Below, in pieces: positions 33,488 to 52,938 of a DNA stretch of 64,000 nt. Below the pieces are notes generated by a model. The model saw only the letters and a program-made list of their open reading frames with translations. It was not told the origin of the DNA and did not search any database. The stretch is from Escherichia coli (GTDB taxonomy: Bacteria; Pseudomonadota; Gammaproteobacteria; Enterobacterales; Enterobacteriaceae). Position 1 is the stretch's first letter. Each line of letters starts with the position of its first letter. The position numbers and the translations under genes are program-made. The stretch lies in the NCBI RefSeq assembly GCF_044324785.1, contig NZ_CP172127.1. One strand, written 5' to 3'.

Positions 33488-33561
33488 GCGGGCGTAGTTC
33501 AATGGTAGAACGAGAGCTTCCCAAGCTCTATACGAGGGTTCGATTCCCTTCGCCCGCTCCA
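33488..33561 (+). tRNA. glyU: tRNA-Gly (anticodon CCC)
   Basis: 74-nt sequence GCGGGCGTAGTTCAATGGTAGAAC...TTCGATTCCCTTCGCCCGCTCCA with cloverleaf stems, anticodon loop cTTCCCAAg and encoded 3' CCA. Confidence 0.9.
33544..33561 (+). repeat. attL core (3' end of glyU)
   Basis: Exact 18-bp copy of the sequence at 52689-52706. Confidence 0.75.
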
Positions 33562-33725
33562 AACAAACATTTCTCAACGTCTACTGAAGTCCATCAAATC
33601 CACGAATATCAAGCCTTTCAGCCATTTTCATAGCTTATTAACGTCTACTCACAACTACCAGAATCTACACACAGAAGTGTATAGTAATGCGTATAGGACA
33701 AAATTTATTTTTTGGAGCTATACAC

Positions 33726-34940
33726 ATGCTGCTTTCAGACCTTGCTATCAGGCGCGCGAAGCCGAAAGAAAAGGCTTATACACTCAATGACGGTAACGGG
33801 CTTTCGTTACTCATTGAGCCGAACGGCTCGAAAGGGTGGCGACTACGTTACAGATTTGCAGGAAAGCCCAAAATGTTGTCGTTGGGCGTGTACCCTGATG
33901 TGTCTCTGTCTGATGCCAGAGCGGCAAGGGATGAGGCTAAAAGGCTTCTTGCTGGTGGTATAAATCCAAGTGAGGCCAGAAAAGCTCAAAAGCGAGAACA
34001 GGCGAGCAAATTTGGCAATACTTTTGAGGGTATCGCTCGCGAATGGTATGAAAAGCGGATCGACAGGTGGTCATCGTCATACGCCGAGGAAATGATCGAG
34101 ACGTTTGAAAAAGACGTTTTTCCGTACATTGGCGGCAGGCCGATCGCAGAAATTAAGCCAATGGAGTTGCTTGCGGTTCTCTCCCGTCTTAATGACCGTG
34201 GGGCGACCGAAAAATTGCGTAAGGTTCGCCAGCGATGCGGCGAGGTGTTCCGGTACGCAATCATCACCGGACGCGCTGAATATAACCCCGCACCAGATCT
34301 GGCAAGCGCATTTGCTCCACACAAAAAAGAGCATTATGCCTATTTGAAGGCCGACGAACTGCCGGAATTTTTCCGCGTTCTTAATACGTACACCGGAAGC
34401 CAGATCGTCAAGCTGGGTATGCGATTATTGATTCTGACAGGGCTCCGGCCAGGGGAATTACGACAGGCAGAATGGCAGGAGATCGATTTTGATAATCGTT
34501 TGTGGGAAGTGCCTAAAGAACGAATGAAGATGCGCCGTCCTCATTGTGTGCCGCTTTCAGAACAGGCGATCGCTATTCTGGAACAGTTAAAACACATGAC
34601 GGGGCAGTATCAGTTTATTTTCCCTGGTCGAATCCAGCACAGTAAGCCGATGAGTGAAATGGCGATGAACGTGCTTATTCGTCGTATTGGCTATTCTGGG
34701 CGCGTTACTGGTCATGGGTTCCGGCACACGATGAGCACGATTTTACATGAGCAGGGCTATAACACCGCGTGGATAGAAACGCAGCTTGCACACGTTGATA
34801 AGAACTCAATTCGTGGCACGTACAATCATGCGCAATATCTGGACGGGCGGCGCGAGATGCTCCAGTGGTACGCCGACTATATGGACTCACTGGAACAGGG
34901 CGGCAACGTGGTGCATGGCAAGTTCGGAAAATGTGGATGA
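33726..34940 (+). CDS. int: Tyrosine recombinase, P4-family integrase
   Basis: N-terminus MLLSDLAIRRAKPKEKAYTLNDGNGLSLLIEPNGSKGWRLRYRFAGKPKMLSLGVYPDVSLSDAR is the P4-type integrase arm-binding signature; C-terminal catalytic residues (R..HGFRHT..Y); ATG at 33726 with GGAG RBS preferred over the ORF-track start at 33687. Confidence 0.85.
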   Translation: MLLSDLAIRRAKPKEKAYTLNDGNGLSLLIEPNGSKGWRLRYRFAGKPKMLSLGVYPDVSLSDARAARDEAKRLLAGGINPSEARKAQKREQASKFGNTFEGIAREWYEKRIDRWSSSYAEEMIETFEKDVFPYIGGRPIAEIKPMELLAVLSRLNDRGATEKLRKVRQRCGEVFRYAIITGRAEYNPAPDLASAFAPHKKEHYAYLKADELPEFFRVLNTYTGSQIVKLGMRLLILTGLRPGELRQAEWQEIDFDNRLWEVPKERMKMRRPHCVPLSEQAIAILEQLKHMTGQYQFIFPGRIQHSKPMSEMAMNVLIRRIGYSGRVTGHGFRHTMSTILHEQGYNTAWIETQLAHVDKNSIRGTYNHAQYLDGRREMLQWYADYMDSLEQGGNVVHGKFGKCG

Positions 34941-35062
34941 CTGGTTGAGTATACAGTAGTAGACTTTGAGCGACGAAAGAAAAAGCTGTGTCTAGGGTCG
35001 CTCCCGAAAAACCGTATACCTCGACGGGCTGGCACAGCCACTACAGTAGAGGACGCTGAGGT

Positions 35063-35866
35063 GTGCGTATGATTGATATTCATGCCGAATTAAACGAATA
35101 CAAAAAAGATTTTATTTCTTTACGTGAATTTCTTGAGGTCGTGCTTAAGGTCGCTGGTGATGATTATGATGTTTCAGATCTCATAACTTGGATACTCAGG
35201 AGAATAAGCGGAGAACATATCCGCCTGTACACAGTAAATGAATTTAAGCTGTTGGAATCTTTTTGTAACCCGTATCGGGATGAATTTGATTATGATGTTC
35301 TTTATAGAAATCTGGATGCGGTTCGGAAACATGGTTGTTTACCTGGTGAGAGGGATGAAAATGGTTTTCTGGTGTCCGGTTATTGGGAAGATCCCGAATT
35401 TGAGAACATTGGATTTATAAGGGGTGAAATTTTCGCAATTTTTCCCGATGTCCTTGACGCGTTAACGAAGCTGGAAGGCGCTAACTCTTCTGAAAATGAC
35501 GAGGTACAAGGACGCGATATTGAAAAGAAAGAGTTGCGTACAGAGGATGATTTATTATCCCAAATCGCAATGCTGGAAAGAGAAAACGCAGAGTTAAGGG
35601 CAAGGATAGAGCAGTTAGAGCAAGAGCGCCCGATACACTTATATAAATACTGGGATAAAGACCCATTAGCTAAGGCTATTGAGATTAGAAACAGAGAGTG
35701 GGCCAATTACGATCCAGAAAATGATTTTGCCACCAGGGGAAATCAAGAAGCGATAACCAGGGAGCTTAAGCAGTGGGGGGCAAGTAATGCTCTTGCAACG
35801 CTCATAGAGAGGACTGCCTGCCCTATTAACCGAGACAACAGCCAAAAGAACGCAAAGCCGGATTAA
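35063..35866 (+). CDS. Hypothetical protein (coiled-coil C-terminus), integrase-adjacent
   Basis: 267-aa ORF; acidic, with a heptad-like segment (LLSQIAMLERENAELRARIEQLEQE); no recognisable catalytic motif. Confidence 0.45.
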   Translation: MRMIDIHAELNEYKKDFISLREFLEVVLKVAGDDYDVSDLITWILRRISGEHIRLYTVNEFKLLESFCNPYRDEFDYDVLYRNLDAVRKHGCLPGERDENGFLVSGYWEDPEFENIGFIRGEIFAIFPDVLDALTKLEGANSSENDEVQGRDIEKKELRTEDDLLSQIAMLERENAELRARIEQLEQERPIHLYKYWDKDPLAKAIEIRNREWANYDPENDFATRGNQEAITRELKQWGASNALATLIERTACPINRDNSQKNAKPD

Positions 35867-35881
35867 CGCACCATACCGCAT

Positions 35882-36024
35882 ACCCTGAGGGTGATTTACT
35901 GTTACCCTGAGGGTATTTTTTTATCTTCCCCGTCAATTTTACCATCACCCTTAGGGTAGATTTCCTCCCGATTACCATCACCCTTAGGGTTAATTTCCTT
36001 CCGGTAACCATTAGGCCTGAGGGT
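35882..36024. repeat. Cluster of five near-palindromic 11-bp repeats (ACCCTGAGGGT / ACCCTTAGGGT) upstream of alpA
   Basis: Copies at 35882, 35904, 35947, 35980 and 36016 (the last as CCTGAGGGT); two copies sit inside a 17-bp direct repeat ACCATCACCCTTAGGGT. Confidence 0.5.
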
Positions 36025-36093
36025 ATGAAAATATTCGTTATTTCTGTGCCATGATTACCTCGTCAAATTGAGTAGACGTTATGAGGTAAATAG

Positions 36094-36291
36094 ATGTCAA
36101 ATACGCTTATTCGTTTAACAGAAGTTCAGCGTAGAACTGGATATAGCAAGGCATGGATTTATCGCCTTATGGGGCAAGGTAAATTTCCTGCATCAGTTAA
36201 AATTGGCTCGCGAGCGATTGCTTTCGTTGAAAGTGAAATTGACGAATGGATCAATCAGCGTATTGCCGAATCACGCGGAACGGCTGCCTGA
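36094..36291 (+). CDS. alpA: AlpA-family phage regulatory protein (excisionase/transcriptional regulator-like HTH)
   Basis: 65 aa; MSNTLIRLTEVQRRTGYSKAWIYRLMGQGKFPASVKIGSRAIAFVESEIDEWI matches the AlpA/Vis-type HTH pattern; RBS present. Confidence 0.8.
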   Translation: MSNTLIRLTEVQRRTGYSKAWIYRLMGQGKFPASVKIGSRAIAFVESEIDEWINQRIAESRGTAA

Positions 36292-36366
36292 TTAAATAGC
36301 TACGGGTTATTGCCCAAGCTATCCACTAGCAAATAAAAAGTAACTTAATTCGATAGCGGAGTTTTT

Positions 36367-37191
36367 ATGAAACTGCGAAAAACGCCCGTACAGGGGCAGG
36401 GCTTTGTTCGGCCTGAAAACCAGAATCTGCAAAATTTCGGCGAAATTATCCCGGTTATTTCCGGCGTTATTGGCGGGCGTGAAGCCGCTGTTGTTAGCGC
36501 AAAAGCGTTACACAAAGCGTTGGGCGTGGGAAAAGACTTCTCTACATGGATCACTGATCGTATCTCTGAATATGACTTCACCATTGGGTACGATTACTCA
36601 GTCCATAAAACAATTTCCCCAAATTTGGGGAAAAGCCCGAATGGCGAGGCTTACAGCAAGATTAAGCACTCTGGCAGACCCGGTAAAGACTATCTGTTAA
36701 GTGTCGGAATGGCGAAAGAACTGGCAATGATCGAACGCACCGAACAGGGCCGCGCCGTTCGTCAGTACTTCATCAAATGCGAGGAGGAGCTACACAAAGT
36801 AGCGCCAGTGCGTTCCGCAGCGTTACGCCGTGAACTGAAAGCCCGTATCACCGTTGCCAGCTACTTTAAGCCGATGTGTGCCGCGCTGGAGGCGTACCGC
36901 GCTGAACTGGGTAAAAACACGCTCCAGCACCACTACACCACGGAAGCCAATATGCTGGCGCGTATCGTGCTGGGTGGCATGACTGCAAAACAGTGGGCGC
37001 AGGCGAACGGCATCACAGGCGAACCACGCGACCACATGAGCACGCTGCAGCTTGAGCACCTTTCTTACCTTGAGCAGAGCAATATCACGCTGATTGAGTT
37101 AGGCCAGGACTACCACCAGCGGAAAGCTGAATTAATTCGTCTTTCGCAACGCTGGTTAGCCCGCCGCATGGAGGTGAGCAGCCATGCGTAA
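36367..37191 (+). CDS. Phage antirepressor-like regulatory protein
   Basis: 274 aa; N-terminal segment (VVSAKALHKALGVGKDFSTWITDRI) resembles AntA/Rha-type phage regulatory domains. Confidence 0.5.
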   Translation: MKLRKTPVQGQGFVRPENQNLQNFGEIIPVISGVIGGREAAVVSAKALHKALGVGKDFSTWITDRISEYDFTIGYDYSVHKTISPNLGKSPNGEAYSKIKHSGRPGKDYLLSVGMAKELAMIERTEQGRAVRQYFIKCEEELHKVAPVRSAALRRELKARITVASYFKPMCAALEAYRAELGKNTLQHHYTTEANMLARIVLGGMTAKQWAQANGITGEPRDHMSTLQLEHLSYLEQSNITLIELGQDYHQRKAELIRLSQRWLARRMEVSSHA

Positions 37192-37741
37192 ACCTGTCTT
37201 TTATGCCGGGCGCACTGAAATCTCTGTCATTAAATTCGATGACATTCAGGTGCGCATAGTGAGTATCAACGGCGAGCCGTGGTTTGTTGGCGCTGATGTG
37301 TGTGCTGCGCTGGAAATCAGCAATGTTACTGATGCTGTTTCAGTTCTGGATAACGACGAGGTAATGACCCTAGCTTTAACCGAGGGGCATTCCGGTAAGC
37401 GTGGTGGTGCCAGAAGCTGGAATGTTGTCTCTGAATCAGGTTTCTACAAACTGATCGCCCGCAGCCGTAAAGCTTCCACACCTGGCACATTTGCGCACCG
37501 TTTCAGTAACTGGGTATTCCGCGAGGTTATTCCTTCAATCCGCAAAACGGGGAGTTATGGTGTTCCGTTTGCCATGCTGAATGATTTCAGTAAACGCCAG
37601 GCTGCATATCAACAGGAAGCCAGCAAACGCGGTTACAGGTTACAGCAATGCAAAGAGGCAAAAGATGCACTGGAACGAGAAGAGCGGGCGCTATGGCGTA
37701 AATATCAGCCTGATTTTCTGGAGGGTGAAAGCAATGTGTAA
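37184..37741 (+). CDS. Bro-N domain protein (phage antirepressor family)
   Basis: 185 aa; GEPWFVGADVCAALEISNV...VLDNDE...ESGFYKLIARSRK...FSNWVFREVIPSIRKTGSYG is the Bro-N signature. Confidence 0.7.
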   Translation: MRKPVFYAGRTEISVIKFDDIQVRIVSINGEPWFVGADVCAALEISNVTDAVSVLDNDEVMTLALTEGHSGKRGGARSWNVVSESGFYKLIARSRKASTPGTFAHRFSNWVFREVIPSIRKTGSYGVPFAMLNDFSKRQAAYQQEASKRGYRLQQCKEAKDALEREERALWRKYQPDFLEGESNV

Positions 37742-37909
37742 CGATCCGAACGTTACAGAAAGAAAAAGCGCCCCGTTGCTGGATAACAGGCAAAACAAAG
37801 GCGACCGGGATAGGTCGCCAGTGGGAACAAAGGAAATCAAACGCATCGCCAACAATGCCAGATTTGCGGCTGGTGGGCAATGTGATCAGTGTGCTGGCTT
37901 GCTGGTGGG

Positions 37910-38107
37910 CTATTCCTGCTCTTTAGCATCGCCATACTGCGATGTTTTCCAGGTATGCGATCCCATTTTTGTGCGCCTGTACTCTTTTAAGAACTTCTCA
38001 AGGACAAACGCACATGGCGCAAATCTTTCCTGTTCTTGTTCGCTTACCGCATTTTTGCGTTGTTTTTTCCTGGATGAGGATAATTTCTTTAATGATTTGT
38101 CAGTCAT
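37910..38107 (-). CDS. Small hypothetical protein (paralogue of 38165..38362)
   Basis: 65-aa minus-strand ORF in a region where the overlapping plus-strand ORF looks non-coding; shares the C-terminal KEQE ending and a basic/acidic pattern with its neighbour. Confidence 0.3.
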   Translation of the reverse strand: MTDKSLKKLSSSRKKQRKNAVSEQEQERFAPCAFVLEKFLKEYRRTKMGSHTWKTSQYGDAKEQE

Positions 38108-38164
38108 CGTAGATACCTGTAACCCTGTGCGCCACAGTTCACCGCACCACGGCGCTGGTGATGG

Positions 38165-38362
38165 TTACTCCTGCTCTTTGGCCTTCCGGCGCTGTTCATA
38201 TTTTAATTTGCGTCCACAGGCATCTAAGACCCATGCGGAAAAATTAGCACTAGGATTAGTTAATTTTTCTTGTTCAACACTGGCATCAATCCCATCTATA
38301 AGCTCGTGCGGGAATCGAATATTTTTCTTTGCTGATTTGTTGTTTGTGTTTCCGCTAGACAT
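38165..38362 (-). CDS. Small hypothetical protein, candidate regulator divergent from the replication operon
   Basis: 65-aa minus-strand ORF whose 5' end abuts the operator-like palindromes at 38391-38469. Confidence 0.3.
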   Translation of the reverse strand: MSSGNTNNKSAKKNIRFPHELIDGIDASVEQEKLTNPSANFSAWVLDACGRKLKYEQRRKAKEQE

Positions 38363-38390
38363 TGGTACACCTCACTTAAATGGATTTGAT

Positions 38391-38469
38391 GGGCGCACAC
38401 AATACAGCAAAAAAAGTGAGAAGTTAAGTATTGACATGTGCGCACACATGATTTTAATCTGTGCGCACA
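38391..38469 (+). promoter_or_regulatory. Sigma70-like promoter overlapped by three GTGCGCAC palindromic operator-like sites
   Basis: -35 TTGACA (38431-38436), 16-bp spacer, -10 TTTAAT (38453-38458); palindrome GCGCACA at 38393-38399, TGTGCGCACACA within the spacer (38437-38448) and GTGCGCACA at 38461-38469. Confidence 0.45.
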
Positions 38470-38567
38470 GTTTGGGTTGCATTGCTCAAATTAAGCAACG
38501 CCCCGCAGTGCTCGCAACACATGCAGGGCGTCTAACCACCAACGATAGAAAGCGTATCGAGGTAGCT

Positions 38568-38771
38568 ATGTTAAATCATACCACACACCCGCAAGGGCGG
38601 GACTCGCACAACCTGAATAAATACATCTGGCGTTTTATCGCCCTGAGCACCGCACAACCACGCGTAATACACATCGAGGCCGCCAGCGAACAGGAAGCCC
38701 GTCAGCAATCCCCGGCTGGCTGCGTGATGGTATTTACTGCCCGCATCCGTCAGGGGGAATACTATGCGTGA
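38568..38771 (+). CDS. Small hypothetical protein (first ORF downstream of the operator-controlled promoter)
   Basis: 67 codons (MLNHTTHPQGRDSHNLNKYIWRF...) with GAGG RBS; corresponds to the only plausible coding part of ORF-track entry 37581..38771. Confidence 0.3.
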   Translation: MLNHTTHPQGRDSHNLNKYIWRFIALSTAQPRVIHIEAASEQEARQQSPAGCVMVFTARIRQGEYYA

Positions 38772-39021
38772 TGAACGATTTATTCTTCTGGAGCAAAAAT
38801 TCAGTGAAGCGCCAAAAAATGAAATTGATGCTCTTTTGCATATCGCGAATATGCTAAAAGTAGCAACGTTCCTTATAGTTTCGAATCTGGAGCATGAAAC
38901 GGCGTTAGATATACTGAACAGTGCTGTCGATTATTCTGAATATATTGCCGAGGATAAATACAGGCAATTACCAGATTTGTTAGCCCATAAATATAAAGAA
39001 GAACCTCACACCGGGAAATAA
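38764..39021 (+). CDS. Hypothetical protein
   Basis: 85-aa ORF in the same orientation and tightly packed with the replication gene. Confidence 0.4.
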   Translation: MRDERFILLEQKFSEAPKNEIDALLHIANMLKVATFLIVSNLEHETALDILNSAVDYSEYIAEDKYRQLPDLLAHKYKEEPHTGK

Positions 39022-39023
39022 AC

Positions 39024-39326
39024 ATGAAGAAGATTAAATTTACTGGCTTAAATGCCAGCGGACAGACTCACCCGAAAATCAGGATCGGGGATATTTTCCG
39101 GGATAAATATGGTGACAGCGTGGTTATTAATTCCGTGTATGAACGGCACATTACATACCGCCGCGCAGGGTACGACTATGACTGTGTGATGCCCGTTCAT
39201 CAGTTCCGGCGTGATTTTTCACTGGTATGTGCAGTACCACGCAGTAAGCCCACCAGTAAAGAGAAAGCACGGGCAAATATTCAGGTAATAAAGAACATGA
39301 TTAACGCATTCAGGGGCAAGAAATGA
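39024..39326 (+). CDS. Hypothetical protein
   Basis: 100-aa ORF; stop overlaps the start of the 708-aa replication gene (ATGA). Confidence 0.4.
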   Translation: MKKIKFTGLNASGQTHPKIRIGDIFRDKYGDSVVINSVYERHITYRRAGYDYDCVMPVHQFRRDFSLVCAVPRSKPTSKEKARANIQVIKNMINAFRGKK

Positions 39327-48273: not shown

Positions 48274-51029
48274 TGAAACAGGCATGTGTTGAAGCTATTG
48301 CGCAGACACTTGGTCGCCAGCCAAAGGCTGATGAGCTGAAAAATATCGAAGATCGTATCAAAGAAGCAGTGCAACATGTGCACAGAAAGAATGCAAAAGA
48401 AGGCAAAAGTGGTATTCCTGATGCTCAAACATACATGGATGCTGCAGAACTGGTACGCCAGCGTGTGGTTCATGATGTGTACAAGAAAAGACAGCGTGTT
48501 GCCCAGAATGCGATCGCCATCAGTAAAATTACTGACACTCTCGATGCTAACATCCCGCCTGATCAGCAGACACCTGTTAATTTGCAGCAGTTTATTTTTG
48601 CTGGCCGACGATCGAGAGACAAAGCTGATATCTCCGTTGCTTCTGCTGAAGAGCTTGCAATTGGGGCATATCAGGACTGGTCCCGTCAGCTCAGTGCTGA
48701 ACTTCTAAAAGCAGGTGATGACGTCCGCAAATTCTTCGAGCAGAGCAGGGCGCTTGGAGAGCAGCGGTTTCGGAGTGTATTCGACAGGCAGGCGGCAAAG
48801 TCTGCACAACTCCAGATCCTGAAAGAAATATATGGCGAAGATACCGGGAATCCCCTGGCGAAGAAAATTGCACAGATTTGGAAGGATGTAACAGGCCGTG
48901 TTCGTCATGAGATGAACGACAATGGCTTTGACATAGGCCTGCGAGAAGACTGGCATACGCCATATGTGGATGATGCTGACCTTATTCGCAATGCCGGGCG
49001 CGAAGAATGGCTGGCATCGTTACCAGTGGCAGAGCAAGCTACAGCACGTCTTTCAGGTCGCCAGCCACCGATTGAGTTTGCCCGCCAGAAATGGGTTGAT
49101 GACGCTTACAACACGCAGGATCGCAGCAATTACGTTAATCCTGACGGCAGCATTATGAATGACGTCGAGTACCGTCAGGCACTGGAAGCGATCTTTGAAA
49201 CGAAGGCCACTGATGGGGCAAACAAAATTGAGCCTGGTACATTTATGGGAGCCGGAGGAATAAAGAGCCGTGGTTCTCAGCACAGGGTGATGGCGTTCAA
49301 GGATGCGCAGTCACACTTCGCCTATATGGAACGATACACTCAGCAGCCGCTGGTGGGGGTGATGATGTCGCACCTGCAATCATCATCCAGGGATTTGGGC
49401 GTCGTTAAAGCCTTTGGTCCGGACGCCGAAAGAAACTTTTCCCTGGTACTGGATCGCATCTATAAGCGCGCAGTAACAGGCGGGAAACGCAAAAAAGAAA
49501 TGGAGGATGAGGCCAAATTAGTTGCCCGTATGTTCAACTCAATGGCTGGCCTAAATGGTGTCGCTTCATCGAGTGTGTTCTCTTCAGCAGTTGGTGGTCT
49601 GCGTAACCTGATGACCAGCGCCATGCTTGGCACCAGCGTACTGACAGCAACCAGCGACCAGGCAATTATGCGGGCAAATGCGCAGGCGCTGGGCTTTACC
49701 CGTGGTGGAATGCGGCTTTCCGTTAACACTATCAAAAACCTGTTTAGTGGAGATGCCAAAAAGGCGAATGCTGAACTCGGTCTGCTGGTGGATTCACATG
49801 CTGCTGTGGTTTCGAAAATGGGCGGGTTTGACTTGTCTCGCGGCATAACTGGCTGGTTCGCAGAGAAGACACTGAAGTGGTCCGGGCTGATCGCTATGGA
49901 CCGCGCAAACAAAGCGTCGTTTGGTCTCCTGATGTACAAAAACATTGGCGAGCTGACCAGAAAATTTAAGACGCTGGACGATATGAAAGGAACCGATAAA
50001 ACCATTCTGGCTAACAAGGGATGGAGCAATGAGGACTGGGCCATCATGGCAGCGGCAGAACTCAGGCCGATGACTACTGCCGGGCATATGGGGATGACGC
50101 CAGACGCGATTTACGCTGTGCCCGATAACGTAATAGCCGACATTATGGCAGACCGTATTACCCGGATTCGTGCCGGGAGTGAAAAGGCACTGGCAGCCCT
50201 TGGAGATCTCCCTCCAGAACGCCTGAAACGGATGAAAGAAGCATTCGACGCTGAGGCTGAGCAGACCATCACGCGCATGATTCGTAATGCACGCGCTGAA
50301 GCAGCCCAGAAATTGCTGGGAATTACGCACGGTGAGATGACCAATGCTGTGACCACCGCTACGGGTATTGATACATATGCCCGTGATGATGCTGGCGAGT
50401 TAATGAAGAGCTTCATGCTCTTCAAAACAACCCCATTTGCTGGATTTCGGCAACTTGTTAACAGAACACGGGATTTGGACACCGTTCCGGCCATTAAATT
50501 TCTGGCCTCATATATCGGGGGAACAACTCTTGCTGGTATGTTTGCGATCCAGATGAACAGTTTGTTAAATGGTAATGATCCGCTGGATATGACAAAACCA
50601 ACCACATGGGTTCAGGCTTTACTGAAAGGTGGTTCGTTCGGTATCTACGGTGATTTTATTTTCCAGGACCATACGCAATATGGCTCCAGAATCGGTGCCA
50701 CTATGGGTGGCCCTGTGTTGAGCTTTGCAGAGCAGTTAACAAAATTACTGATTACTAACCCACAGAAGGCTCTACAGGGTGAAGAAACATCATTCGGTGC
50801 CGATGCACTGAAAACAGCCCGCATGATCACCCCATTCGCAAACCTGTGGTATGCGAAAGCGATAACCAATCACCTGATATTGCAACAACTTCAGGAGATG
50901 GCAAACCCTGGTTACAATGATCGAGTAAGGGACCGCGCGCAACGGGAGTTCGACATAACGAGTTGGTGGGAACCGGGTGCTATTGCGCCACGTAGAGCAC
51001 CGGATTTTGGAAAGGCGGTGGGGAACTGA
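48273..51029 (+). CDS. Large hypothetical protein (918 aa), cargo operon gene 3
   Basis: ATG at 48273 overlaps the upstream stop (TAATG) with a GAGGA RBS; the ORF-track start at 48252 is a GTG in the same frame; no recognisable catalytic motif. Confidence 0.6.
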   Translation: MKQACVEAIAQTLGRQPKADELKNIEDRIKEAVQHVHRKNAKEGKSGIPDAQTYMDAAELVRQRVVHDVYKKRQRVAQNAIAISKITDTLDANIPPDQQTPVNLQQFIFAGRRSRDKADISVASAEELAIGAYQDWSRQLSAELLKAGDDVRKFFEQSRALGEQRFRSVFDRQAAKSAQLQILKEIYGEDTGNPLAKKIAQIWKDVTGRVRHEMNDNGFDIGLREDWHTPYVDDADLIRNAGREEWLASLPVAEQATARLSGRQPPIEFARQKWVDDAYNTQDRSNYVNPDGSIMNDVEYRQALEAIFETKATDGANKIEPGTFMGAGGIKSRGSQHRVMAFKDAQSHFAYMERYTQQPLVGVMMSHLQSSSRDLGVVKAFGPDAERNFSLVLDRIYKRAVTGGKRKKEMEDEAKLVARMFNSMAGLNGVASSSVFSSAVGGLRNLMTSAMLGTSVLTATSDQAIMRANAQALGFTRGGMRLSVNTIKNLFSGDAKKANAELGLLVDSHAAVVSKMGGFDLSRGITGWFAEKTLKWSGLIAMDRANKASFGLLMYKNIGELTRKFKTLDDMKGTDKTILANKGWSNEDWAIMAAAELRPMTTAGHMGMTPDAIYAVPDNVIADIMADRITRIRAGSEKALAALGDLPPERLKRMKEAFDAEAEQTITRMIRNARAEAAQKLLGITHGEMTNAVTTATGIDTYARDDAGELMKSFMLFKTTPFAGFRQLVNRTRDLDTVPAIKFLASYIGGTTLAGMFAIQMNSLLNGNDPLDMTKPTTWVQALLKGGSFGIYGDFIFQDHTQYGSRIGATMGGPVLSFAEQLTKLLITNPQKALQGEETSFGADALKTARMITPFANLWYAKAITNHLILQQLQEMANPGYNDRVRDRAQREFDITSWWEPGAIAPRRAPDFGKAVGN

Positions 51030-51343
51030 TGACGAGAGATAAAATTGAATATATTGCTTCTCTTAAATATGAAGCTGAGAAATGGAGAAGGATTGGCGGG
51101 TGGGGAACATTAATATCACTCTCTGCTTTACTTATAGACTCCTGGTTCAGACATATTGATGCAGCATCATTACTTTTTGAATCAGCAGTACTTGGTGGAT
51201 TCATTTGCTGTTGGGGTGGTAATTATGATCGGGCGTCCAAACATAAGAGAGAACTTGACGCGATATGTTTTGCTTTATTCGGTAAGGATTACGAAAGTTC
51301 TGACCTTGATATAATTGAATTCAACAAAACGGAACTATCGTGA
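51029..51343 (+). CDS. Small protein with one hydrophobic segment (104 aa), cargo operon gene 4
   Basis: TGATG coupling to gene 3; predicted membrane-spanning stretch (LISLSALLIDSWF...VLGGFICCWGG); followed by a terminator. Confidence 0.45.
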   Translation: MTRDKIEYIASLKYEAEKWRRIGGWGTLISLSALLIDSWFRHIDAASLLFESAVLGGFICCWGGNYDRASKHKRELDAICFALFGKDYESSDLDIIEFNKTELS

Positions 51344-51351
51344 CATGTCAC

Positions 51352-51376
51352 AGGCCGCTTTCGCGGCCTTGTTTTT
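51352..51376 (+). terminator. Rho-independent terminator of the cargo operon
   Basis: Stem aggccgc / gcggcct with loop tttc, followed by TGTTTTT; 9 nt after the stop of the 104-aa gene. Confidence 0.6.
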
Positions 51377-52045
51377 AACGAATGCCACCGCCGCCCGGGC
51401 GGGAATTCGCAGATAAAAAAGCACGCTGCACGGTTTTATTAATACTTATACCATTAGGATTGATCCTTCAATGGACAATCCTTCCATCGTGTGGCCAGCC
51501 ATTCATATTCTTTGTCTTTTCTTCAGTATCGGCTTTGCATCTTCTACACCCTGAAAGATGTCGTTTTATGGTGTATCTGATGATTTATTCCCTAACAATA
51601 GATATTCGAAAAATTAATCAGTTAAAACAATTATTTGGATAATTTCAGGTAAAACTATCTTAATCTTCTGGTGGATCTCAATGCGTAGTGACGGTATCGG
51701 GATTAAGGGCGTGGATATTCGCGATATATGCCGCTACACCCCTCAACAGTAATAGATATGAGCTTTTCACGCTCTCCTTTCACTGCTGAGAACGGCAACA
51801 ACGTGCCACAGGAACGCGCTGTAATCGATTCTGACGCACTTAATTGCGTTGGGTAATGGTTTTTGCCAGCCTGTGGGGGTAACTCTGTTTTATGAGGCTT
51901 TGGCTATAGTGCAAAAATACACTTTGTCTTGCCTCTCAATTTGATGAGACTGGAACGACAACAGGACAGACCACCAGCAACAGTTACCGTATTCAGCCGT
52001 TCTGTGGCACCAGTGGAACTATCAACCCCTGCTTTCAGCAATGTG

Positions 52046-52203
52046 TTTGCGGGTTATTTTGGGGCGTTTGCGGGTTATTTGGGATGTTTTGCGGGTTATG
52101 TGATGCTTGAATAATGAACAGTGTATTTTGCAACATATTGATACTAAAGAACAAAAAATAGTTAGCATACTAAGATAACCCGGTAACCCGCATAACCCGC
52201 ACT
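52046..52203. repeat. Iteron cluster B: three inverted and three direct copies of the same (A/G)TAACCCGC motif
   Basis: TTTGCGGGTTAT at 52046, 52067 and 52088; ATAACCCGG at 52175, GTAACCCGCA at 52183, ATAACCCGCAC at 52193; same motif as cluster A, ~10.5 kb away, just inside attR. Confidence 0.55.
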
Positions 52204-52688
52204 GTTTTGTATATATATACGAAAAATTGCATTCAGGAGGGGGGGAGCGAAATCCCTACAATCCATTGCTTATGGGACCGCCCGCCTCGTCAAATTTTTA
52301 CACCCGCGAAATAAAAAAATACTTCACGCTGGTGGGCATGATGCTGATATGGGAGGCTTCCATAACGCCACCATTCGGAACTATGCAAATCTGCATAGAA
52401 AAGGGGATGCCTGATACAATACCCTCGCCCGATAAAATCACACCGATAAACTCATCTGCCACGAGTAGAAAGAGCGAACGAACCCGATACGCAGTAATGC
52501 TTGTCGGGTACAGCTTTTTAAGGCGGCTGTAGATATCAGGCCATCCGTGATCATCCACCAGCGAGATAGCCGATAACGATGACGCATAACCCTCAAGCGA
52601 GGGATAAATGTGTATAGAAATGTGTATAGAATTGATTTTAGAACTCGCAGGATTCGCGCTATTACTGGCCTTGTGTGATGTTGTATTG

Positions 52689-52706
52689 TTCCCTTCGCCC
52701 GCTCCA
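52689..52706 (+). repeat. attR core (duplicated glyU 3' end)
   Basis: Exact 18-bp copy of the glyU 3' end, 19.1 kb downstream of the tRNA. Confidence 0.75.
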
Positions 52707-52938
52707 ATTTATCTTCACCTCATCAACCTGTCATTTTTGTTGTATCTGATTTTCTATATTATCTTAATTCAATCGCTTCAGACTTTTCGCAATCGCCGAA
52801 ATACTTCCCCATTTTTTTGTAAATAAAAGCGTTTACGCAATGCAATCCATTTGTAACAACCCAGGTAAAATACCTTATTTTCAAGTTGTTAAATAAGTGG
52901 TTATCTACGCTTTTAACAAACGATTGATGGAATCTTTT

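Follow-up and report, generated by a model that had tools for sequence, protein, structure and literature searches.

The stretch of DNA analyzed here, a 64,000-nucleotide window of an Escherichia coli chromosome (contig NZ_CP172127.1 of assembly GCF_044324785.1), carries a 19.1-kb island (33544-52707) inserted at tRNA-Gly, and the gene set of this island resembles that of the AlpA-type phage-inducible chromosomal island (PICI) EcCIMP1. Near the left end of the island, a gene that we refer to as X lies directly next downstream of the integrase gene int, which ends at 34940, and upstream of alpA, in a position that we call the int-alpA slot. The original prediction had described X as a defense or cargo candidate in a variable integrase-adjacent slot of a P4-like satellite. 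We observed a conserved RNA leader in front of X and five TACCC-N3-GGGTA palindromes, spaced by whole helical turns, between the X stop codon and alpA, and we analyzed how these features and the domains of X vary among related loci.

Slot gene X, its leader, and the palindromes before alpA

The slot contains the following features, where aa is amino acids, ORF is open reading frame, SD is Shine-Dalgarno sequence, HTH is helix-turn-helix, and MFE is minimum free energy:

34985-35052, + strand: int-alpA RNA motif (Rfam RF02996), 5' leader of X, with a conserved SD-bearing tail to 35068
35069-35866, + strand: slot gene X, 265 aa plus stop; GTG 35063 is an alternative start (267 aa)
35069-35473, + strand: N-terminal alpha/beta domain of X (aa 1-135), acidic and swappable, a proposed sensor
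35543-35632, + strand: leucine zipper of X (aa 159-188), ending at the invariant P188
35633-35833, + strand: C-terminal domain of X, CTD-A (aa 189-255), about 70 aa, four-helix bundle, a proposed DNA-binding domain
35881-35893: palindrome O1, TACCCTGAGGGTG
35903-35915: palindrome O2, TACCCTGAGGGTA, then T7; also reads as a weak terminator hairpin for X
35946-35958: palindrome O3, CACCCTTAGGGTA, inside the 33-bp tandem unit 35939-35971
35979-35991: palindrome O4, CACCCTTAGGGTT, inside the 33-bp tandem unit 35972-36004
36005-36025: composite promoter-proximal site O5, TAACCATTAGG followed by CCTGAGGGTA, abutting the candidate -35
36026-36055, + strand: candidate alpA promoter, with -35 TGAAAA at 36026-36031 and extended -10 TGcCATGAT at 36047-36055
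36055-36089, + strand: alpA leader hairpin, the 3' arm of which (36081-36089) contains the alpA SD (MFE folds)
36094-36291, + strand: alpA, 65 aa, AlpA/MerR-type HTH (Pfam Phage_AlpA, 2.4e-19)

Conservation confirms that the ORF beside the integrase, originally read as 267 aa from a GTG (35063-35866, + strand), is real and beyond chance. Of 5,426 complete E. coli genomes, 147 carry X as an intact ORF, with at least 99% identity in 131 of these, and homologues with 26-98% identity occur across Enterobacterales. The true start is probably ATG 35069, giving 265 aa, because RefSeq/PGAP calls this start, the homologues all begin with MIDI or MLDI, and the conserved leader ends in ...GAGGTG(N4-8)ATG, which places the SD of X at 35057-60. 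The earlier statement that the protein has no recognizable motif held up: searches of Pfam, PHROGs, NCBIfam, and PADLOC and phmmer and profile searches of PDB sequences gave no functional match and returned coiled-coil noise only. Pfam contained no HTH family matching X, and Bro-N, KilA-N, ANT, and ORF6C domains were likewise undetected. Furthermore, a Foldseek structure search against the PDB gave no significant fold match for X or CTD-A.

AlphaFold (AF2) models and alignments divide X into an N-domain, a disordered acidic linker, a zipper, and CTD-A. The N-domain has a beta-alpha-alpha-beta-beta core, with a predicted local distance difference test score (pLDDT) of 82-90 over aa 11-130. X is acidic overall, as had been noted (pI 4.7, net charge -21), but its C-terminal domain is mildly basic (pI 8.1) and is the sole non-acidic part of the protein. 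The coiled coil had been placed at the C terminus, whereas we found it to be internal (aa 159-188) and followed by the globular domain of about 70 aa. In this coil, L162, L169, L176, and L183 occupy d positions and I166, N173, and I180 occupy a positions over four heptads; L169 and L183 are invariant, L176 nearly so, and both AF2 models show a single long helix. These residues follow the pattern of a parallel dimeric leucine zipper (at least four heptads with Leu at d, hydrophobic residues at a, and one Asn at a), so that X is a predicted dimer. CTD-A carries the signature DDPLxLAIxIRNxEWxxYD...TRGNQ...AxxIExVACPIxR and was modeled with a pLDDT of 88 together with the zipper and about 90 in a CTD-only model.

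The palindromes that follow X are concentrated at this single place. With at most 2 mismatches allowed, TACCCTNAGGGTA has four matches in the 64-kb window, all of them in a 111-bp stretch immediately downstream of X, against a window-wide expectation of 1.08; the sites lie 2.3 kb from the left attachment repeat (attL), and neither the surroundings of the right one (attR) nor the rest of the window has further copies. Both O1 and O2 can also be read as weak hairpins of the terminator type. At O5, the ...GAGGGTATGAAAAT junction is conserved in loci encoding CTD-A. The two 33-bp units containing O3 and O4 (35939-36004) are a tandem duplication with 88% identity, and E. coli 55989 has one unit (compare locus L002, 12790-13005), so operator copy number differs between strains in which X is 99.3% identical. 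Over 35 loci, the spacings between sites were quantized at 22-24, 31-34, 42-44, and 52-56 bp (98 of 111 spacings). Such distances amount to 2-5 helical turns at about 10.8 bp per turn, and even distant loci keep their spacings in the same order.

Upstream of X, the RF02996 match scored 46.9 bits with the covariance model, above the gathering score of 35.8. Rfam lists this family as a gene/sRNA of unassigned function. Across all classes of slot gene, we found the motif to end 15-18 nt short of the start codon, and sequence conservation of the leader runs up to the ATG and no further. When a covariance model was made from the hits, it detected the motif in 25 of 83 loci; L063 was the only one among loci scored as lacking a slot ORF. 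The two main stems covary, with 6 pairs changed on both sides, a level that none of 500 shuffles reached. In addition, the loop of the hairpin (CACCUC) matches the SD (GAGGUG) as its complement, and L005 shows the compensatory pair CACCCC with GGGGUG. Given this complementarity, the RNA has the look of a leader acting in cis on translation and not of a free sRNA. From these findings, the motif is the cis 5' leader of a swappable cassette and probably an element of translational control, which gives the orphan int-alpA RNA a genomic role as a slot-gene leader. The Photorhabdus locus L063 (3238-3323) is a decay form, with the leader RNA and no slot gene before alpA. A second decay form, L047 (3185-3427), has an 81-aa CTD-A fragment and a single palindrome left.

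Repeat type follows the C-terminal domain

Conservation across the X family is confined to the zipper and CTD-A; the N-domains are many and unrelated, and the proteins range from 109 to 515 aa. The family occurs in Escherichia, Salmonella, Klebsiella, Enterobacter, Citrobacter, Serratia, Pectobacterium, Yersinia, Morganella, Proteus, and Pantoea and in Pasteurellaceae, with all members annotated "hypothetical." CTD-A also occurs as a protein of 142-155 aa, with the N-domain encoded by its own upstream ORF of about 107 aa, and such short proteins are common in Klebsiella, Salmonella, Serratia, Proteus, and other genera. Split versions with a 106- to 108-aa N-domain ORF and then a 152- to 153-aa zipper and CTD-A ORF were seen in L006 (5659-6462), L019 (2483-3279), and L034 (2456-3249). 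Conversely, the N-domain of X is fused to another C-terminal domain, CTD-B (GKDTALxxIAGLAxALEK...), in P0079, P0084, P0085, P0091, P0099, and P0100. X seems to be the first representative of a regulator family not described before.

We surveyed 80 loci from different species with AlpA 66-83% identical to that of the window, which together with the window and six loci fetched earlier gave 87 loci (AlpA 66-100% identical) for counting the repeat motif of the CTD-A class (A-motif). Allowing at most one mismatch, the A-motif occurred two to four times in the 300 bp upstream of alpA in all 8 loci encoding CTD-A and in none of the 79 loci without CTD-A. Elsewhere, 5 matches were found in about 630 kb of flanking sequence. 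Each class of slot protein had its own type of repeat in the spacer before alpA:

Class CTD-A: TACCCTnAGGGTA, 3-6 copies
Distant CTD-A': ATGGTGGGT / ACCCACCAT
Class CTD-B: CACTTCCAA direct repeats, 4-6 copies
Class DUF6387: a long single inverted repeat before alpA
Remaining slot classes: further distinct repeats

Natural swaps separate the contribution of the C-terminal domain from those of AlpA and the N-domain. AlpA of type 1 with CTD-A is accompanied by TACCCNNNGGGTA, and AlpA of type 1 (80% identical) with the same N-domain and CTD-B is accompanied by the direct repeats of class CTD-B. AlpA of type 2, which is 32% identical to type 1, is found with TACCCATAGGGTA when the slot protein has CTD-A and with TACCAA repeats when it has CTD-B. 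EcCIMP1, an experimentally mobilized element with an AlpA 78% identical to that of the window, has no slot gene and none of these repeats. Repeat type thus follows the C-terminal domain, not the AlpA type or the N-domain. Consistent with this finding, sixty further CTD-A loci from IMG/VR form subgroups that differ in the TRGNQ segment and carry correspondingly diverged motifs, including TACC(C/A)TGAnAGTA, TGATAGCAA, and CCTATAT. Furthermore, zipper-bearing CTD-A pairs with palindromes, and CTD-B, which is zipper-less as judged by eye, pairs with direct repeats.

These observations bear on whether the C-terminal domain might instead be a protein interaction module, contacting AlpA, Int, or a host factor, with the repeats read by something else. 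Such a function would suit a domain of about neutral charge and no recognizable DNA-binding fold. However, the type of repeat is independent of the AlpA type and of the sequence of the AlpA recognition helix, the cassette has no other class-specific gene, and the pairing of a zipper with palindromes and of its absence with direct repeats is as expected for direct binding, and we therefore regard an interaction module as very improbable.

Other assignments of the repeats were considered and rejected. AlpA as the binder of the palindromes was set aside because the motif is independent of AlpA type and absent from 79 loci with closely related AlpA. As integrase arm sites, the palindromes would lie too far from the attachment site, and they have no copies at attR. 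A role only as RNA hairpins does not suit class B arrays, which are direct repeats. Finally, an identical N-domain occurs with different repeats, which argues against the N-domain as the binder.

E. coli, Salmonella, Yersinia, and metagenomic loci all share the order int, X homologue, alpA or alpA-like gene, and antA, even where identity falls to 28%. An alpA-type gene immediately follows each homologue that we examined, and a P4-type integrase gene immediately precedes it wherever the contig extends far enough; CTD-B proteins with the N-domain of X occupy the identical slot. In E. coli, X-bearing islands are found at glyU and at thrW (55989/O104:H4). Among the complete E. coli genomes, the alpA allele of the window is present in 160, X in 147, and the 3' end of the window int (at least 95% identical) in 31, indicating that X travels with alpA across integrases and attachment sites. 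In the presence/absence comparison that had been suggested as a check, the near-fixation of X with the alpA allele does not look like the behavior of presence/absence cargo among close relatives.

Between species, in contrast, the slot is hypervariable, so that the variability originally assigned to it is borne out across species. About 35 of the 80 surveyed loci have a slot ORF of 150-350 aa, and the proteins of these loci comprise at least seven unrelated C-domain classes with many N-domains; in most Xenorhabdus and Photorhabdus loci, the slot is empty and int adjoins alpA. DUF6387, a Pfam family without an assigned function, forms one slot class in L017, L020, L021, L028, L037, and L038, of which L017 and L028 were scanned. 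In L008 (and L009), a low-GC metagenomic relative, the slot (L008 1-3700) has three tandem copies of the leader RNA. Leaders 1 and 2 each head a gene pair consisting of a 67-aa Endonuclea_NS_2 fragment and a 118- to 126-aa ORF, and leader 3 heads a 99-aa ORF followed by an X homologue and then an alpA-like gene. The slot can therefore stack cassettes, and because it can hold other cassettes, the idea of a hotspot is right for the locus, though X itself looks regulatory. The slot appears to hold regulatory cassettes despite its hypervariability between species.

This variability is one ground for considering X, as first proposed, to be anti-phage or host-benefit cargo in a recombination hotspot, with the repeats being unrelated to it (terminators, repetitive extragenic palindromic [REP]-like elements, or sites of another protein). 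The slot proteins are unrelated between species and uncharacterized, DUF6387 included; conserved flanks (the RNA leader upstream and the alpA leader downstream) could drive cassette exchange; L008 stacks leader-headed cassettes with Endonuclea_NS_2-like gene pairs; and the acidity of X and its variable domain would be in keeping with a sensor-effector. In contrast, X matched 0 PADLOC-DB families at E up to 1 and has no defense-family match and no enzymatic or toxin-like domain, and tblastn found no homologue in 50,697 phage genomes. Nor could unrelated cargo explain why class-specific, multicopy, phased arrays are kept through deep divergence or why X is linked nearly to fixation with the alpA allele in E. 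coli. Comparative genomics thus disfavors a cargo role, which we consider unlikely; synteny, phased arrays, and the combination of zipper and palindromes point to regulation. A conserved regulatory component, the outcome that the original prediction had named as contrary to its cargo proposal, is favored by the fixed alpA synteny and operator arrays, which leaves cargo disfavored only.

A candidate gate on alpA

In PICIs related to the island, alpA, located "just downstream of int," encodes the master activator; helper phages switch on its transcription by a route that is not known, and whether Gram-negative PICIs have a repressor at all is described as "unclear" (PMC6092414, PMC11773190). We found no description of an int-alpA slot regulator or repressor in the literature. 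How Gram-negative PICI-type satellites stay silent and sense a helper phage is the open question on which the slot bears.

The candidate alpA promoter was read from the sequence together with locus comparison; a consensus promoter scan made no call at 36026-36055. Downstream of it, the alpA leader forms a 9-bp hairpin in which TTACCTCGT pairs with ATGAGGTAA and buries the alpA SD. Across 61 distinct alpA leaders, the arm sequences vary and their complementarity is kept (ACCTCGT/ACGAGGT, CTCCTGTAG/CTACAGGAG, CCCTGTT/AACAGGG, and others). Because the candidate -10 would start the alpA transcript inside the 5' arm, translational silencing by the hairpin would affect only int-X read-through transcripts. 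The arrangement resembles the "fold-back inhibition" of IS10.

Considering these findings together, we propose, with a probability of about 0.5, that X is a dimeric operator-binding regulator that gates alpA and has a swappable sensor domain. The zipper (aa 159-188) would pair two C-terminal domains (aa 189-255), and the paired domains would recognize the TACCC-N3-GGGTA palindromes. As the simplest account, we propose that CTD-A may be a new sequence-specific DNA-binding domain. The five sites (35881-36025) would lie on one helix face from the X stop codon to the edge of the alpA promoter, where a cooperative complex would set alpA firing. Since X belongs to the transcription unit of int and not to the operon driven by alpA, X would most likely hold alpA off while the island is quiescent. 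The N-domain may act as an input module, with binding of a helper-phage protein or another cue releasing or converting the complex, as with Stl, and X itself would be translationally controlled by the int-alpA RNA leader. Free swapping of N-domains is as expected for an arms race with inducing proteins. We infer the DNA binding, target promoter, direction of regulation, and sensing role of X from sequence comparison.

We extend this proposal to the slot as a whole more tentatively and with less than even expectation. The slot may hold a hitherto unrecognized cassette, swappable by recombination and composed of an RNA leader, a modular regulator, and its own operators, that acts in many Gram-negative phage satellites as the long-sought element-encoded gate on AlpA and decides which helper or cue induces the island, with CTD-A as a new DNA-binding family and the int-alpA RNA as its translational leader.

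Several points weigh against X as a repressive gate. The sites are located upstream of the candidate -35 and do not cover the -10 and +1, and the proximal site is centered about -43 from the inferred start of the candidate promoter, an arrangement that fits an activator, including a class II activator, as well as a repressor. The CTD is about neutral family-wide, with a median pI of 7.0. The CTD coding region physically adjoins the repeats, and cassette linkage could give part of their association; however, a multicopy motif and its geometry are kept at about 35-40% protein identity in spacers that cannot be aligned, which speaks for selection. Moreover, EcCIMP1-like elements without a slot gene still respond to helper phage (PMC11773190). 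The slot protein is therefore not a universal sensor and would instead be an optional, lineage-specific layer of control.

The promoter geometry raises the alternative that X binds the repeats as an activator or coactivator of alpA, in the manner of a helper-responsive enhancer-binding protein. The array precedes a promoter whose candidate -35 is weak, its proximal site has the geometry of class II activation, and PalpA in related elements is activator dependent (PMC6092414). A precedent is found in PIME1 integrative mobilizable elements, where a LuxR-family regulator, encoded alongside and divergent from alpA, is needed for excision and replication and is a proposed helper sensor (bioRxiv 10.64898/2026.01.12.698999). 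On the other hand, X is encoded in the int unit and not in the induced operon, relatives without a slot gene are induced without such a factor, X has no recognizable activation domain, and the geometry depends on a candidate promoter. We consider activation by X to be a minority possibility, at about one chance in a handful.

A function outside transcription initiation was also considered, in which X binding to the repeats would serve excision or integration architecture, iteron-type replication or partition, or a roadblock to int-X read-through. Phased multicopy sites beside the gene for their binder resemble iterons, Cox/Xis boxes, and centromere-like sites, and O1 and O2 also form weak terminator-like hairpins. 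However, the distance of the sites from attL and their absence near attR and elsewhere in the window do not fit, the island has its own DUF927 primase-helicase, and relatives without a slot gene are mobile (PMC11773190). X also departs from the profile of a recombination directionality factor (Xis/Cox/Vis), since at 265 aa and pI 4.7 it is large and acidic rather than small and basic. We therefore judge a nontranscriptional function to be quite improbable.

If X is a regulator that gates alpA, its nearest functional parallels are the Stl/Rpr regulators of Staphylococcus aureus pathogenicity islands (SaPIs) and other Gram-positive PICIs, as summarized in PMC6092414. As with X, these regulators are encoded in an integrase-side unit beside the induction switch, their operators are found between the gene for the regulator and the operon that is induced (an operator role that is predicted for the X sites), and the proteins are strongly diversified, with a conserved DNA-binding part and a variable one, the latter being where Stl binds a helper-phage protein; the SOS-independent logic is likewise shared with our proposal for X. 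In contrast, X has no sequence or fold relation to Stl/Rpr and lacks a CI-type HTH, and its domain order is reversed, with the variable domain N-terminal and the putative DNA-binding domain C-terminal. X is also codirectional with the induced gene rather than divergent from it, and it would control the activator AlpA instead of directly repressing the whole operon.

Other known regulators share single features with X. The PIME1 regulator is likewise an extra element-encoded regulator in a regulatory region alongside alpA, but it belongs to a LuxR HTH family, is divergent from alpA, and has a conjugative plasmid rather than a phage as its helper. The small HTH proteins of the AlpA/Vis/Xis type (P4, CP4-57, and PICIs) occupy the same regulatory neighborhood and bind DNA at multiple sites near int, whereas X is four times larger, acidic, zipper-bearing, and unrelated in sequence, and its repeats are independent of AlpA type. 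In the Bro-N/KilA-N regulators of the "domain-swapping network," such as PLE CapR (PMC10111431), a DNA-binding module is shuffled with variable partners as in X; however, none of the domains Bro-N, KilA-N, ANT, and ORF6C is detected in X, which lies in the "integration zone," not in the Bro zone.

The X family therefore provides a concrete candidate for gating in E. coli (O104:H4 included), Salmonella, Klebsiella, Yersinia, Serratia, Proteus, and Pasteurellaceae, and several further "dark" protein classes, including DUF6387, are placed in the same regulatory position. If the proposal is true, cassette swapping would reprogram satellite-helper specificity, which would bear on the spread of virulence and defense cargo and on engineered PICI "drones."

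The island and its surroundings

The chromosomal genes ygeV, xdhCBA, and actS precede a tRNA-Gly(CCC) gene at 33488-33561, at the 3' end of which the island begins. Its borders and the genes used to classify it are as follows:

33544-33562: attL, 19-bp direct repeat TTCCCTTCGCCCGCTCCAA at the 3' end of tRNA-Gly(CCC), left island end (tRNA call and exact repeat)
33726-34940, + strand: int, tyrosine integrase of the P4 type, 404 aa from the start that RefSeq calls, with the reading frame open from 33687
39323-41449, + strand: DUF927 primase (Pfam)
52689-52707: attR, exact second copy of the 19-bp repeat TTCCCTTCGCCCGCTCCAA, right island end

Int contains the Pfam domains Arm-DNA-bind_3, Phage_int_M, and Phage_integrase, and RefSeq likewise annotates an integrase. 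The island genes, all on the + strand, are int, X, alpA, antA, bro-N, an icd-like gene, DUF4222, and the DUF927 primase, followed by ssb, proQ/finO, perC, and three large ORFs of no assigned family. This gene set did not bear out the assignment to P4-like satellites, the core genes of which are psu, sid, delta, the P4 alpha primase, and epsilon and the hotspot of which lies between psu and int, since Pfam scans of the island ORFs found no Psu, Sid, Delta, or P4 alpha, in agreement with the RefSeq annotation, and neither source revealed phage structural genes. Gram-negative AlpA-type PICIs have been defined by int at one end, a co-oriented alpA just downstream, a primase, attachment repeats, a size of 10-20 kb, and the lack of phage structural and lysis genes (PMC6092414, PMC10111431), and we found this layout in the island; the definition further includes induction, packaging, and transfer by a helper phage. 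By its gene content, the island is an AlpA-type PICI-like satellite, not a P4-like one.

Four co-oriented ORFs of 843, 686, 925, and 104 aa with no Pfam domain (43682-51343) fill most of the distal half of the island and are presumably the larger cargo candidate of the original prediction. A probably spurious ORF of 396 aa at 37581-38771 overlaps small genes annotated by RefSeq on both strands (YlcI/YnfO-like, hypothetical, and Icd-like). At the Rfam gathering score, this region showed neither a C4 nor an isrK immunity RNA; both RNAs are present in the relatives L006, L014, L023, L024, and L040. Beyond attR (52.9-64 kb), the G+C content drops to 0.34-0.46, and this stretch, which contains a GH15-like gene, an AraC-type regulator gene, and type III secretion genes (secretin and HrpJ-like), is the E. 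coli type III secretion system 2 (ETT2) region adjoining glyU.

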